In this document: piece after piece, positions 1 to 14,515 of the stretch
How positions within the stretch are numbered: position 1 is the stretch's first letter
Layout: every line of letters starts with the position of its first letter
Virus record (IMG/VR): IMGVR_UViG_3300012167_000093
Location: 1 to 26,435 of that record
Direction: 5' to 3' (one strand)
Length of the DNA stretch: 26,435 nt
DNA from: a virus
Lineage: Duplodnaviria > Caudoviricetes
Notes under the pieces: model-generated
The model's database searches: none
What the model saw: the letters and a program-made list of their open reading frames with translations, nothing else
Told to the model about the DNA's origin: nothing
Translations under genes and position numbers: made by a program

Positions 1-1629
1 CAAGTCTTGATAGAGAATCTCTTGCACGTCCTTGTGATGCGCGAAGATGCAGATTTTACGGTCTGTATCCTCAATGAATTCGCTCACGTATTCCATCGTT
101 GCCGGAATCTTGGCCAACGCTACAATCCGCCGCATCTTTGCCATAGCAGCGATGATTGCCATGCCGCCTAATTCCTCGGTCTGCTGTTCGTACCACTTGA
201 CGAACTCATCTACTGCCGCATCGTAATTCTGCTCCTCCTGCTCCGTCATTACAACATTCAGTTTCGTCCTGTTGACGAGCGGTAGTTCAGGCAATACTTC
301 GGTCCGCTCGCGACGAATACACAAGTCTTTCGTGTATTCCTTGAATGCTGGAATGTTACGAATTCCCGCTTCCTTCTCATACGCGCCAACGTAATACGTG
401 TCAACCCAACGTCGGCGGAAACCTTCTGCAGAATTGAATTTAACAGGGTCCATCATGTTGAACACGGGGAACAGTTCTGAACCTCTGTTGTTCCAAGGTG
501 TGCCAGAGAGAGGGATTACTTTCCTGTCGCGAACTACGCGCCGCACCATCTGAGTGCGCGAGCTGTCAACATTCTTAATCTGCTGACATTCGTCCAACAC
601 AACACACTTAATGCCAACACGGTCGAACTGCGAGATATCGAATCCGCTGTTGACTTTTGTGCCGTTCTTCAGAGTGCGCGACTTCGGCACCAGCATGTCG
701 TAGCCGATGATGTAGTGCTTCAGACCAGGAATGAGCCAATCCTTCGACGTGTTCACTACCTGAGGCACGTGCTCGTCACCCATCCAGTAGAGAATGAATG
801 ATGAAGTCTGATACTTGAGCGCGCTCTTGACAACCCACAATGTTGGGCTAAGTGTCAGCTGATTGAAGTAGATTACTCCTCCCGCTTGGATTGTTTTTCC
901 GAGGCCCATCTCATCGAAACACGCCGCACCCTTGTTTACAGACAATCCCGCTTCGAGGAACTTCATGCCCTCGATTTGAAAGTCGTATGGACGATAGCGA
1001 TTGCAAAGGATACAGTGGTTTTTATCCCATGTGTGCTGACATGTAGGGTCACCACCCATCTGGAACGTGTGGAACGGGGTTCCTTTGGGGATATACTTGA
1101 CCATCATGTGGCCACATTCCAACGTGATAAACTTCATATCAGGTTGGTCGTCACCCGGCATCGTCATAGTGCTTTCGGATGCCATTTTGGCGACTTTGCC
1201 ACATACGTTACACTTATCCTGAAGCCGTGTAACGGTGTATCGAGGTGTGCGGATTACCTGTGTGTCGAAGGTCACCTCCACATCCGCGCCACTACGTATC
1301 GCGTCAATGATGTGTGGGTCGAGTGACAGGTTAGAGCATGGGAGAGTGTTGTCGCATCCTACTTCACGCGCCTTCGTAGCCCATGTCTCATTGTGTGCAT
1401 GGCCCGGCCCAACGAGTGCGTGTGCAATCTCGTGTAGGATTGTATTCTTTACATCCTCAGTCGGATGTATGTCGATGTGGTGGGCGGACAATATGATACA
1501 CTTGTCCTTATAGGAGCACAAGCCGAGGAATTTACTGTCGGGATTTTGATTCAGGCGCACGGACCAGTCTGTAAGTCCATGCTCATTCATCTTGTCCCGC
1601 AGATATTGTGACGCTTCTTGCCGTGTCAT
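1..1629 (-). CDS. SprT-like Zn metalloprotease + Cys/His clusters + SNF2-family helicase fusion (truncated at window start; not in ORF track)
   Basis: Manual translation from ATG at 1629 (SD AAAGGA upstream) is open to base 1. MTRQEASQYLRDKMNEHGLTDW...FLGLCSY...NTILHEIAHALVGPGHAHNETW is a SprT-type HExxH..H motif. It is followed by CNVC..CGH and CQH..HCILC, then SNF2 motifs FDEMGLGKTIQA (Walker A), VVLDECQQIKN (Walker B), LSGTPWNN (motif III) and KICIFAHH (motif IV). Confidence 0.92.
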   Translation of the reverse strand, partial: MTRQEASQYLRDKMNEHGLTDWSVRLNQNPDSKFLGLCSYKDKCIILSAHHIDIHPTEDVKNTILHEIAHALVGPGHAHNETWATKAREVGCDNTLPCSNLSLDPHIIDAIRSGADVEVTFDTQVIRTPRYTVTRLQDKCNVCGKVAKMASESTMTMPGDDQPDMKFITLECGHMMVKYIPKGTPFHTFQMGGDPTCQHTWDKNHCILCNRYRPYDFQIEGMKFLEAGLSVNKGAACFDEMGLGKTIQAGGVIYFNQLTLSPTLWVVKSALKYQTSSFILYWMGDEHVPQVVNTSKDWLIPGLKHYIIGYDMLVPKSRTLKNGTKVNSGFDISQFDRVGIKCVVLDECQQIKNVDSSRTQMVRRVVRDRKVIPLSGTPWNNRGSELFPVFNMMDPVKFNSAEGFRRRWVDTYYVGAYEKEAGIRNIPAFKEYTKDLCIRRERTEVLPELPLVNRTKLNVVMTEQEEQNYDAAVDEFVKWYEQQTEELGGMAIIAAMAKMRRIVALAKIPATMEYVSEFIEDTDRKICIFAHHKDVQEILYQDL

Positions 1630-1659
1630 AGTATGTCGTCCTTTCGGATTCGACTGTTG

Positions 1660-2325
1660 TTAGATGAGGCCCATCAACTCCGCGAAATGCTTTGCCGCGC
1701 CTTCCGCCGAAAGACCTTTCGACACAATGATGGACTGGACCTGCGCGGCAGGAACCCCATACTTTTTCGCCGCAGCATACACCGCAGCTTTGTCGAATGT
1801 GACCTTACGTGATGGTCCGGCAGGTGTAACCGTCTTAACTTTCTTCGATGGCGCGTCAGGCTTGTAATTGATGTTGTGCAGCTTGAATTTCGCTTGCTGG
1901 TCTACACGCAGCTTCGCGACGGTTTTCTGCGTGTTTTCGAGCCACATGTATCGCTCGTTTTTCAGCTTGATTACCGCTTGCTCCGCCTCGAAGATTACAG
2001 GATTCAATTTCTCGATGCGCTCCGCAGCCAATTCCGCGACCTTGTAATTCTTCTGGTCCGCTGGAATTGAATCGTCATTCATTACAGCCGCTTCCAATTC
2101 GACGAATGATACTGTCGCCGCATTGAAGATGTCTGCTTTCAGTTCGATTGACGCATCGATTTTGCGCGCTACATCGATTGTCTGTTGTGCCGTGATAGTG
2201 CGCGCTTCCTTTGCTGCGCATTCCGCGCATTGCATCATGCCCGCATCAAACTTGGACTGTGTGAGCATTACATCCGTGGTGGGACAGCAATCGCAGTCGC
2301 CTTTACGTGTAGTATGGTTCAACAT
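1660..2325 (-). CDS. hypothetical protein, N-terminal Zn-ribbon (CDCC...CAEC), helical middle, basic C-terminus
   Basis: 221-aa ORF abutting the upstream gene's stop (TAA-ATG), co-directional with its neighbours. Confidence 0.8.
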   Translation of the reverse strand: MLNHTTRKGDCDCCPTTDVMLTQSKFDAGMMQCAECAAKEARTITAQQTIDVARKIDASIELKADIFNAATVSFVELEAAVMNDDSIPADQKNYKVAELAAERIEKLNPVIFEAEQAVIKLKNERYMWLENTQKTVAKLRVDQQAKFKLHNINYKPDAPSKKVKTVTPAGPSRKVTFDKAAVYAAAKKYGVPAAQVQSIIVSKGLSAEGAAKHFAELMGLI

Positions 2326-2784: not shown

Positions 2785-2867
2785 GTAGTCCGTCCTTTCG
2801 GTATCGGTTAGTGCCGCTACATGTAAGGGATTACATGTAACCCGGTCAGGGCTTGCGCCGGACCTCG

Positions 2868-6264: not shown

Positions 6265-6486
6265 GTGCCTATCGATAAACCCTACGCATATCACAAGCCA
6301 AGCGCGCATGGATTAGAGGCAATCACTAGATTGAGAGAAGTGTTCAGTCAGGTGGAACAAGTAATCAAGGAAGTATGCCCACCATCACGTCACACATCTC
6401 TCGCTGTGACAAACAATGAACAGACTGCGATGTGGGCAATTAAAGCAGTAGTGTTCAATGACCCAGAGTCAGAAGTGGAGACATAA
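6265..6486 (+). CDS. Acb2/Tad1 hairpin-domain-like protein (candidate nucleotide-signal sponge)
   Basis: YAYHKP...EVCPPSRHTSLAVTNNEQTAMWAIKAV resembles the Tad1 hairpin (SRENACALTHVEEALMW) and related YH.P...CP.SRE.SLA.T.LE...MWA proteins; GTG start with AGGA SD. Confidence 0.7.
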   Translation: MPIDKPYAYHKPSAHGLEAITRLREVFSQVEQVIKEVCPPSRHTSLAVTNNEQTAMWAIKAVVFNDPESEVET

Positions 6487-10205: not shown

Positions 10206-11210
10206 ATGGCATTCTTCAGTGCGCTCGGCAACTTTCTGAAACGACCTGAAGAAGATTATGGGGTGTATCAGCCTGTCGAGCAGAGTAGGTCAGGTGGTAT
10301 TGGACCGATGCAGATGCCACAAGTATCACCACCAATACCGAGTGAACCTGTTCCATCTCATGCTGTGACACCACCATCAGGACCAATGGGACCGACTAAG
10401 ATTGGTCCTGAGCCTGGGTTTTTTGGTAATCTGGAACGTCAATATGCTAAAGGAGATATAGAGAATCTAGTTAAATCGACTCAGCGTGTGGTCGATACTA
10501 CGAATATCGGAGCGTCATTGGATGATGTGGCGGCGCGTATGGGCAAACCTGCTGGATCATTCAGTACAGAACTAAAGAGAATATATGATCAGTGGGGCGG
10601 ACATTATAATCTTTCACTTAAGGATAAATCTCGTTACAGTAGTCCTGATGATTCAATAGGATATATTGAAATGGGAGCACGACCTATCGAGGGTCATTTA
10701 CCAATCAGTATGACTTACTTAGGTGATTCATATCATGGCACGGGATTAGGCGGAGAAATGTATCGGGAAGCTATTGAAAAGGTTAAGGAAAAAGGATTCA
10801 GAGGATTGGCGTCTGATCCTGATATGCGAAATGATTTTTCCAATCAAATATGGGATCGTCCTGGTATAACTAGTATCGATCGACCGGGGGGTTATAAGTA
10901 TGAACTAATGTCGGAATACATTCCACGTGGTAAGGATTGGGTATCAACTCCTTTCAAGGGTTTGTTCAAACAGGATATGGCAGAACAGCCCATGTTGCCG
11001 GGAGTAAAGGAATTTCTACTCGACCAAATGAGGAATAAATCCTTCCAATCAGCAGGTGTGCGCCCCAATCCATTACAGAGTATAGTTACACAACAGAATC
11101 AACCCACACCAGATTATAATGCATTCGTTGATCGGCTTATACGTGAAGTAAATTCGAATAAGTCACAGCGTTCACTATTTCCATTCTTTGATTTTCCTGC
11201 TGGTAGATAA
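10206..11210 (+). CDS. protein with a central GNAT acetyltransferase-like domain
   Basis: YLGDSYHGTGLGGEMYREAIEKVKEKGFRGLASD...SNQIWDR matches GNAT motif A and the following helix-strand; Pro-rich N-terminus. Confidence 0.65.
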   Translation: MAFFSALGNFLKRPEEDYGVYQPVEQSRSGGIGPMQMPQVSPPIPSEPVPSHAVTPPSGPMGPTKIGPEPGFFGNLERQYAKGDIENLVKSTQRVVDTTNIGASLDDVAARMGKPAGSFSTELKRIYDQWGGHYNLSLKDKSRYSSPDDSIGYIEMGARPIEGHLPISMTYLGDSYHGTGLGGEMYREAIEKVKEKGFRGLASDPDMRNDFSNQIWDRPGITSIDRPGGYKYELMSEYIPRGKDWVSTPFKGLFKQDMAEQPMLPGVKEFLLDQMRNKSFQSAGVRPNPLQSIVTQQNQPTPDYNAFVDRLIREVNSNKSQRSLFPFFDFPAGR

Positions 11211-13352: not shown

Positions 13353-14081
13353 ATGGGATTCATAAGTAAACTGGCACTAGGAGGCGGCAAAATCGGTAAA
13401 GTTGGCGGTAAGAATCTCCTTAAGTATGGAACAGCATTTATACCGGGCGTAGGTCCACTCGTATCGATGGGTATTAATGCAGCTACTAGTGCTGCTGATG
13501 CGAAGATGGAGGGTGGTAGTTGGGGTGATGCTGTTAAAGCAGGTGCAATCGGCGGCGCTACAGGATACATGGGTGCAGGTGGATTTGGTAAATTAGGAAA
13601 ACTTGGTAAAACCTTAGCTGTTGCAAATACAGTCGCTCCATTAGTAGGAGAAGCCGTGGCATCTCGTAATTCTGGTTCAAATTCGCGCACTTCAGGTATC
13701 GGTCCTTCCACTAATCCGTCCGCTGTGTCGAGAACTGGACAAGCGATGCCTAAAGGTGGATTCAGATACAGCGAGAATCCATTAAATCAGTATGATCAGT
13801 CTAGTCCTAATCTGTCGATGGCACTACATCAAGGGCGACAGGAAGCGATTAGGAATCAGCCATTCCGTAAAGGGTATGACATCAAGACTCTGACGGGATA
13901 CGAGAATGATGACACAACTAAGCCGACATATGCGTATTCGAGTATGCCGCGCATTCAGTCAGATCGACCTGACAAAAAGAAACGAAGAAATTTGGATAAT
14001 TCTGAGGTGACTCCTACTCCAGAAACCGCGAAGAAACGTGGAGGTTTGGCAGGTATTAGAGATAGGGTGCAAGCATACTAA
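13353..14081 (+). CDS. Gly/Ala-rich putative internal virion/ejection protein
   Basis: AFIPGVGPLVSMGINAATSAA...AGAIGGATGYMGAGG Gly-zipper-like N-half, polar and basic C-half; AGGTGA SD. Confidence 0.6.
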   Translation: MGFISKLALGGGKIGKVGGKNLLKYGTAFIPGVGPLVSMGINAATSAADAKMEGGSWGDAVKAGAIGGATGYMGAGGFGKLGKLGKTLAVANTVAPLVGEAVASRNSGSNSRTSGIGPSTNPSAVSRTGQAMPKGGFRYSENPLNQYDQSSPNLSMALHQGRQEAIRNQPFRKGYDIKTLTGYENDDTTKPTYAYSSMPRIQSDRPDKKKRRNLDNSEVTPTPETAKKRGGLAGIRDRVQAY

Positions 14082-14515
14082 TGGTTGCTAACTATAAAAA
14101 GGCTTTTGCGCTCGGCGATCGCTGTAGAACTTGTAATGATATTGTTACAAGTGAAAACTGTGTATGGAGTGGTAATAATCTTAGAGTAGATTGTCGTAAA
14201 TGTTGGACAATCAGAGCAAAGGAATATAATGCTAAAAGAGATATGAAACATCATAATATGAAACATCGATATGGAATGGTTCCAGAAGAATATAACAAGA
14301 AACTGGAATTACAATTGGGTGGCTGTGCAATTTGTAAACAACCTTGTAAAACTGGAAGAAATCTTGCCATAGATCATAGTCATAAAACTAATATACTCCG
14401 AGATTTATTGTGTCAGCGATGCAACGTAGTACTTGGACTTGTGAATGATGATGAGTTGTTATTGTTCGATATGATGGATTATCTCAAACGGCACGAGACG
14501 GAGGTGGCATCATGA
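14081..14515 (+). CDS. endonuclease VII-family (HNH-type) nuclease, probably a free-standing homing endonuclease
   Basis: YGMVPEEY...QLGGCAICK...LAIDHSHKT...RDLLCQRCNVVLG; N-terminal CxxC..CxxC; AT-rich (17/60 GC at 14221-14280). Confidence 0.9.
   Translation: MVANYKKAFALGDRCRTCNDIVTSENCVWSGNNLRVDCRKCWTIRAKEYNAKRDMKHHNMKHRYGMVPEEYNKKLELQLGGCAICKQPCKTGRNLAIDHSHKTNILRDLLCQRCNVVLGLVNDDELLLFDMMDYLKRHETEVAS

Follow-up and report, generated by a model that had tools for sequence, protein, structure and literature searches.

A SprT-like domain and an SNF2 ATPase share one reading frame

The window, which is the whole stretch of DNA that we analyzed (26,435 nucleotides), is a 26.4-kb fragment of a phage record. 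Its plus strand carries a terminase gene and weak matches to podovirus capsid and adaptor proteins, and its minus strand carries early genes. At one end of the minus strand lies the gene described here, a SprT-Zn-SNF2 fusion (positions 1..1629) that begins with an ATG at 1629 and reaches base 1 without a stop. It comprises 543 of about 695 codons, the 3′ end being lost at the contig end. A full-length relative of 695 amino acids (P0002) is 95% identical to the window protein across residues 1-210. The initial annotation had described one uninterrupted frame, and this was confirmed. A contig from a separate run, not flagged as a source of the record, covers positions 216-1783 with zero substitutions or gaps, which rules out an assembly artifact, and there is no stop or frameshift between the domains.

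Words of the window sequence, counted where at least half of those sampled were present, occurred in eight runs, all from freshwater sediment; four of the eight are possible source runs, and no RNA run was among those listed as containing window sequence. Genome scans for hosts returned scattered MAG contigs assigned to Nitrososphaerales, Ca. Sulfotelmatobacter, Pacearchaeota, Saccharibacteria and Kapaibacterium, which may be binned phage.

Upstream of the fusion is a 221-amino acid gene with no assigned function (1660..2325, minus strand), which gave no Pfam, PHROG or NCBIfam match and is present in 38 of 42 fused loci versus six of 55 unfused loci. Between the two genes, a hairpin with a GAAA loop lies over the ribosome-binding site (1635..1654, minus strand), and copies of its core precede two other early genes (2530-2539 and 2792-2801, minus strand). 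Across 105 related loci, the core (CC-GNRA-GG-AC) occurs 74 times on the coding strand versus four times on the opposite strand. Among 53 distinct copies, 28 can form a lower stem of at least three pairs with varying letters (mean 9.2 and maximum 18 in 2000 sets with shuffled partners), and in 46 the start codon follows 4-14 bases past the hairpin. An Rfam scan of the window, hairpin included, found no match; the element is possibly a translational operator.

Three other window genes, all on the plus strand, are recorded as side observations. Positions 6265-6486 encode an Acb2/Tad1 hairpin-domain protein (PF24729, E 3e-12), a likely immune-signal sponge with homologues at varying positions in 11 of the 105 related loci. 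A 334-amino acid gene upstream of the terminase (10206-11210) has a weak, below-cut-off match to GNAT acetyltransferases (E 0.002). An Endonuclease VII gene (14081-14515; PF02945, E 3e-17), likely a homing endonuclease, overlaps the start of a probable portal gene.

Protease, zinc-binding and motor motifs are intact

The SprT-like zincin domain comprises residues 1-98 (1336..1629). Its Pfam match (PF10263, residues 18-93, E 1.3e-9) scores 38.4 bits against a curated cut-off of 25.6. The HEIAH motif at residues 66-70 (1420..1434) supplies zinc ligands H66 and H70 and the catalytic E67; the third ligand is H79 (1393..1395), followed by W83. All five residues are invariant in 120 of 120 homologues, the best 120 of 532 clusters. 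When a profile of 17 SprT domains was compared to the PDB, human SPRTN (6mdx) came first, followed by projannalysin, MJ1213 and Wss1, although the match to SPRTN is weak (E 7e-4) and on par with matches to minimal archaeal zincins. The linker that follows (residues 99-138; 1216..1335) has the highest column conservation of the whole protein (0.88), and its pLDDT in the model is below 50. The fusion is under purifying selection: compared with the two closest relatives, dN/dS was 0-0.12 for the SprT domain and 0.08 for the SNF2 domain, with the other nine pairs near or at saturation.

Two Cys/His clusters, each invariant in the same best 120 homologues, separate the linker from the motor. Cluster 1 (CxxC...CxH; C140, C143, C172 and H174; 1108..1212) matched by regular expression in 187 of 192 family members that lack an N-terminal SprT, being either unfused or insert-type. 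Judged from this pattern, cluster 1 is the N-terminal ribbon of the SNF2 family and occurs whether or not a protein carries SprT. That it is instead the remnant of a SprT ribbon found no support, since HHalign to the ribbons of standalone SprT proteins aligned only the CxxC, at a probability of 27%. Cluster 2 (CxHxW...CxxC; C197, H199, C206 and C209; 1003..1041) belongs largely to the clade of N-terminal fusions, 51 of 64 of which have it; it occurs in 10 of 158 unfused and none of 34 insert-type members.

The SNF2 ATPase occupies residues 213-543 (1..993) and contains the Q motif and motifs I-IV. It matches phrog_62 (E 1e-57) and, over residues 217-500, PF00176 (E 1.5e-21). Walker A (GLGKT) lies at 892-906, motif II (DECQ) at 583-594 and motif III (SGT) at 499-507, and the Walker A lysine is invariant in 120 of the best 120 homologues. 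Motifs V and VI fall beyond the contig end; in 116 of 116 full-length homologues they are intact, including the motif VI arginine. Thus PF00176, PF00271 and motifs I-VI are all found, V and VI only through full-length relatives. The closest solved relative of the motor is SSO1653 (1z63), and whole-protein fold searches returned matches to the ATPase throughout. From family membership, the motor would be expected to have dsDNA-stimulated ATPase and translocation activity.

These results agree with the initial annotation as to the N-terminal SprT match, the intact HEIAH..H motif, the two Cys/His clusters and SNF2 motifs I-IV. Where it departs from them is motif II, which had been singled out for reading DECQ in place of DExH. 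The DECQ is kept in all 118 of the best 120 homologues that extend to motif II; across the family, position 4 is Q in 128 of 133 members, with the exact DECQ in 63 of 95 unfused proteins, and SSO1653 itself has DEAQ. DExQ is therefore the family norm, and we rejected the idea of a degenerate or special motif. Two other labels were considered for the motor. The SMARCAL1-like label came only from automatic source names, and no SMARCAL1 entry was among the listed PDB matches. Named defense SNF2 proteins (ZorD, DrmD, DpdE and BrxH) scored 22-26 bits on the window part against cut-offs of 500-1500, with the matches restricted to the ATPase region; the fusion protein is none of these.

The fusion belongs to an abundant family with several peptidase positions

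Using residues 1-210 of the window protein as the query, we obtained 727 candidates of 298-951 amino acids, and 532 clusters in this size range matched. The best 120 all contain PF10263; 116 are about 695 amino acids long and combine SprT with SNF2 and Helicase_C, and the other four are shorter. The fusion occurs in an uncultured phage family from sediment and soil. Among 50,697 isolated-phage records, none had a match over 80% of the fusion protein. Of the earlier caution that the fusion might already be common and characterized, the first half is correct; as to the second, searches of the open-access literature brought up no account of it. The SprT-SNF2 architecture is real, abundant and, as far as those searches reach, undescribed, and its parts are themselves known.

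We classed 133 proteins, made up of 128 near-complete sequences among 150 listed representatives (50% identity) and five from the N-terminal search. In 95, only the N-terminal zinc ribbon and the ATPase are present (unfused). SprT is N-terminal in 17, is inserted between motifs II and III in 15, and in one (P0215) lies between duplicated zinc ribbons. Three (P0178, P0206 and P0257) have at the N terminus a second type of zincin with HExxH..H, which has no Pfam SprT match and aligns to the insert at the motif only. The remaining two (P0154 and P0201) carry a possible cysteine-peptidase domain at the N terminus. What is new is thus that the same phage SNF2 family carries SprT in at least three positions, including one between motifs II and III.

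A papain/C39-like gene of about 205 amino acids, with candidate Cys and His residues, lies directly downstream of SNF2 at L058:11914-12543 and in 15 other unfused loci (16 of 67 unfused versus none of 50 fused loci, apparently one or two lineages). The Cys/His/Asp pattern of this gene family and of the P0154 and P0201 N termini is what we take to be papain-like motifs. C39 is hinted at by an Atlas cluster in which 11% of the proteins carry Peptidase_C39 and by a Pfam C39 match at E 0.06; HHalign of the two N termini to the neighboring gene family gave no alignment. The putative cysteine-peptidase label is a lead only.

The insert is about 130 amino acids long and occupies a single site, such that the spacing of motifs II and III is 161-175 residues versus 32-45 in 94 of the 95 unfused proteins. 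The remaining unfused protein (P0189) has in the same loop an insert of another kind, about 45 residues long, rich in Cys and His and unrelated to SprT. In a larger set, HExxH and the third His are intact in 37 of 37 inserts. Among 14 bearers the insert is 55% identical, versus 42% for their cores, and all 29 matches to the insert region among proteins of 353-1126 amino acids are SNF2 proteins. In separate observations on the same SNF2 family, P0123, P0233, P0238 and P0247 carry intein-like inserts that contain LAGLIDADG and are located at or close to Walker A; P0238 has such an insert together with the SprT insert.

Structure prediction, proposed as a check on the fusion, was run on full-length proteins of both types. 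In the insert-type model (mean pLDDT 80), both RecA lobes are folded and the zincin sits on two low-confidence linkers. In the window-type model (mean pLDDT 72.9, pTM 0.53), the linker is unresolved and there is no confident packing of protease against motor.

The SNF2 gene is constant and the protease variable in a recombination module

Since the window ends inside the gene, genomic context was taken from related genomes of 45-48 kb. In 105 loci, many of them cut at contig ends, the genes after SNF2 include those for a PD-(D/E)XK exonuclease (93 loci), a Sak4-like AAA protein (88), an SSB (73) and a UDG-PolA protein (64). The AAA protein matches AAA_24 and phrog_124. The SSB has a weak match to phrog_378 (E 0.004) and no match to any Pfam family or to DUF669. 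SNF2 is the constant and the protease the variable component of this exonuclease-Sak4-SSB-PolA recombination and replication module. Two other genes of these loci deserve mention. L003:17953-20487 encodes a DNA polymerase of family A whose N terminus is a uracil-DNA glycosylase domain; it is conserved throughout the phage family. A protein of about 400 amino acids, encoded at L028:6975-8285 and in 26 other loci, has a sequence that reads like a ParB-DNA methylase fusion (22 unfused loci versus only two fused).

Standalone SprT genes are uncommon. Among 25 unfused genomes that are near-complete, only two encode one that scores above the Pfam cut-off, in both cases 0.9-1.7 kb upstream of SNF2; five more have weak matches, two of which are zincins in the early region. 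Near the SNF2 gene, standalone zincins occur in five of 45 unfused versus none of 27 fused loci, numbers too few to establish complementarity. All 27 standalone SprT relatives have a C-terminal tail resembling a zinc ribbon, which the insert-type domains lack.

SprT domains have been lost repeatedly

We examined the history of the fusion on a tree of 265 rows, from which five contig-edge rows and near-duplicates had been dropped (159 unfused, 64 N-terminal, 36 insert and six other forms). The architectures require 34 changes on this tree, where the minimum is five. Unfused rows are nested in well-supported fused clades (L062 with L086, P0177, L098 with L189, and P0140), indicating that SprT losses are frequent; L062, which lacks the insert, is 83% identical to the insert-bearing P0274. 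As 159 of 265 members have no protease, we rejected an obligate partnership of SprT with this SNF2 protein. SprT is optional and, on the reading favored below, a host-dependent add-on outside the core function of the motor.

Insert bearers are scattered (13 changes for 15 rows versus a shuffled mean of 14.4), and their forming one clade was rejected (AU p 7e-5, with rows chosen together with their sisters). Insert and core identities are correlated when all bearers are included (Mantel r 0.28, p 0.0005, n = 36; with 14 rows, r 0.13, not significant), which fits largely vertical descent with losses. In a tree of the SprT domains themselves (93 columns), the inserts form one clade (support 100/100) and 13 of 15 N-terminal domains another (89/95); the other two N-terminal domains sit among standalone proteins. 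The SprT domain of P0256 groups with the window clade (99/90), and its motor is placed elsewhere. From these 93 columns, a single origin of all fused SprT domains was not rejected (AU p 0.33). The different positions of SprT in the motor require at least two joining events, and more than two are likely, if unproven.

A DNA-tethered protease is the favored interpretation

SNF2 motors move along dsDNA and push bound proteins. Translocation of SWI2/SNF2 ATPases on dsDNA occurs without unwinding, as outlined in Iyer 2017 (PMC5512222, in part). In the excerpted work on SPRTN, DNA binding through its ZBD is required and cleavage is directed at flexible regions (PMC9240642); cleavage of a crosslinked protein is enabled when the FANCJ helicase unfolds it (PMC10505908, in part). 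In phage phi47, a helicase purifies together with a Cas4 exonuclease, an SSB and Sak4, and it is also recovered with a CRISPR Csy complex (PMC13687109).

We give about an even chance to the reading, drawn from domain content and gene neighborhood, that the fusion protein is a DNA-tethered protease that would free phage DNA of proteins stuck to it while the DNA is being repaired and replicated by recombination-dependent routes. The motor would take over the role of the zinc-ribbon DNA-binding module of standalone SprT proteins, translocate until it meets a protein roadblock on phage DNA, loosen the roadblock and hand it to the tethered protease for cutting. That SprT occurs at several positions in the motor, one of them within the ATPase lobe, and that fused forms lack the standalone zinc ribbon lend indirect support to such a DNA-tracking protease; without that ribbon, DNA targeting probably comes from the motor.

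Nucleoid proteins, repressors, defense sensors and crosslinks are all candidate substrates. Proteins that stay tightly bound to phage DNA, those of host defense or others, head the list as tentative targets. Covalent crosslinks, such as abasic-site adducts, come next and are somewhat doubtful. The patchy presence of SprT suits host-dependent counter-defense slightly better than housekeeping crosslink repair. A broader proposal, which we put forward as speculative, is that these proteins are single-chain translocase-proteases, viral counterparts of FANCJ plus SPRTN that would clear bound or crosslinked proteins from DNA, assembled more than once within one phage family from different peptidases (N-terminal SprT, SprT in the ATPase lobe, the second zincin and the cysteine-peptidase-like domain) and stripping host immune complexes so that the Sak4 module could repair the DNA.

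The strongest competing explanation, though we consider it unlikely, is that SprT is a passenger: a common accessory protease of phages for which fusion to an essential gene brings strong early expression or a high local concentration. It would then cut soluble host proteins with no help from the motor, perhaps after releasing itself. The frequency with which SprT is gained and lost on the 265-row tree is compatible with this, as are the two genomes in which a standalone SprT lies so close upstream of SNF2 that a deletion could readily create a fusion. Autoproteolytic release has been proposed for the MPTase zincins of polyvalent proteins (Iyer 2017; PMC5512222, in part), and host targets have been suggested for phage SprT proteins (Iyer 2021; PMC7824862, in part). 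However, release of an internal SprT domain would split the ATPase lobe, so an insertion kept in 36 distinct sequences is ill-suited to it. The missing zinc ribbon in fused domains and a linker that is the most conserved segment of the protein also count against a passenger.

Improbable, in our judgment, is a role in self-regulation, in which the protease would cut its own motor or the phage SSB, Sak4 or exonuclease on DNA, switching the module off or timing the change from early to late phase. SPRTN cleaves itself in trans in a DNA-dependent manner (10.1101/2024.11.26.625192, in part), the proteins of the comparable phi47 module are found in a complex, and the SprT domain of the insert-type model is attached through flexible linkers. 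Yet in most of the family the module operates and no protease is detected, a poor fit to a core regulatory step.

Least probable of all is a selfish or non-proteolytic domain, either an insert that spreads like an intein by recombination, as the scatter of its bearers, slightly more similar flanks near the insert site among bearers and the conflicting placement of P0256 might suggest, or a zincin fold acting as a nucleotide or nucleic-acid hydrolase, as might weak matches to YgjP, a pyrophosphatase; but motifs for splicing or a homing nuclease were not seen in the insert alignment, the identities of insert and core are correlated, and the best structural relatives by sequence are peptidases.

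The fusion has wider implications. SprT-like proteins are widespread in bacteria and phages and are called DNA-protein-crosslink proteases only through their likeness to SPRTN; a strongly conserved natural fusion to a motor, including a form within the ATPase lobe, is genomic evidence that they act on DNA. In a single protein of about 75 kDa, the coupling of translocation to proteolysis is testable with two point mutants, and natural pairs with and without SprT (83% identical motors) ease comparison. If the targets are host defense proteins on DNA, the fusion would represent counter-defense by mechanical stripping and cutting.

Comparison with known systems

The fused domain belongs to the same Pfam family as standalone phage SprT-like proteins (PF10263; PHROGs 1006, 6445 and 3768) and is 32-34% identical to two standalone copies from related phages. 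The standalone proteins differ in being 120-210 amino acids long, with the C-terminal zinc ribbon and no motor, and actinophage SprT proteins are described as single genes in the parts of two reports that we cite (10.1101/2025.05.26.655371, PMC12363180). With SSO1653-type SNF2 proteins (1z63) and phrog_62 phage helicases, the fusion shares motifs I-VI, DExQ and two RecA lobes with a helical insert; the N-terminal zinc ribbon and the optional peptidase domain are extra.

The same kinds of neighboring genes make up the Healer module of Pseudomonas phage phi47, which consists of a helicase, a Cas4 exonuclease, a DUF669 SSB and a Sak4-like AAA protein. SprT and SNF2 are absent from the main text of the Healer paper (PMC13687109), and the SSB of the phage family described here gave no DUF669 match.

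Polyvalent proteins, such as the DarB-like methylase-SWI2/SNF2 proteins with an MPTase, likewise place a zincin and a SWI2/SNF2 domain in one phage polypeptide, and in the literature searched they were the only known case of this pairing. As described in portions of Iyer 2017 (PMC5512222), they are large, virion-injected and methylase-coupled; their MPTase has a Glu third ligand on a C-terminal helix, and its clades are unrelated to defined zincin families. The fusion is not a polyvalent protein of this kind: it is an early replication-module protein of about 695 amino acids, has no methylase and uses His79 as the third ligand, and 116 of the 120 best matches contain three Pfam domains and no others.

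Human SPRTN (6mdx, 6mdw) and yeast Wss1 (5xbn) have the same zincin core, including HExxH and a His as third ligand. The fusion is not of the SPRTN type, as it lacks the DNA-binding zinc subdomain that SPRTN has after the protease core, cluster 1 belonging to the SNF2 family. SPRTN, in the layout given in an excerpt of PMC9240642, has a ZBD, basic region, PIP, UBZ and SHP and no motor; of this layout the phage fusion retains the protease subdomain only, joined to an SNF2 ATPase. Whereas SPRTN works with FANCJ as a separate helicase (PMC10505908, in part), the phage protein carries its motor in cis.
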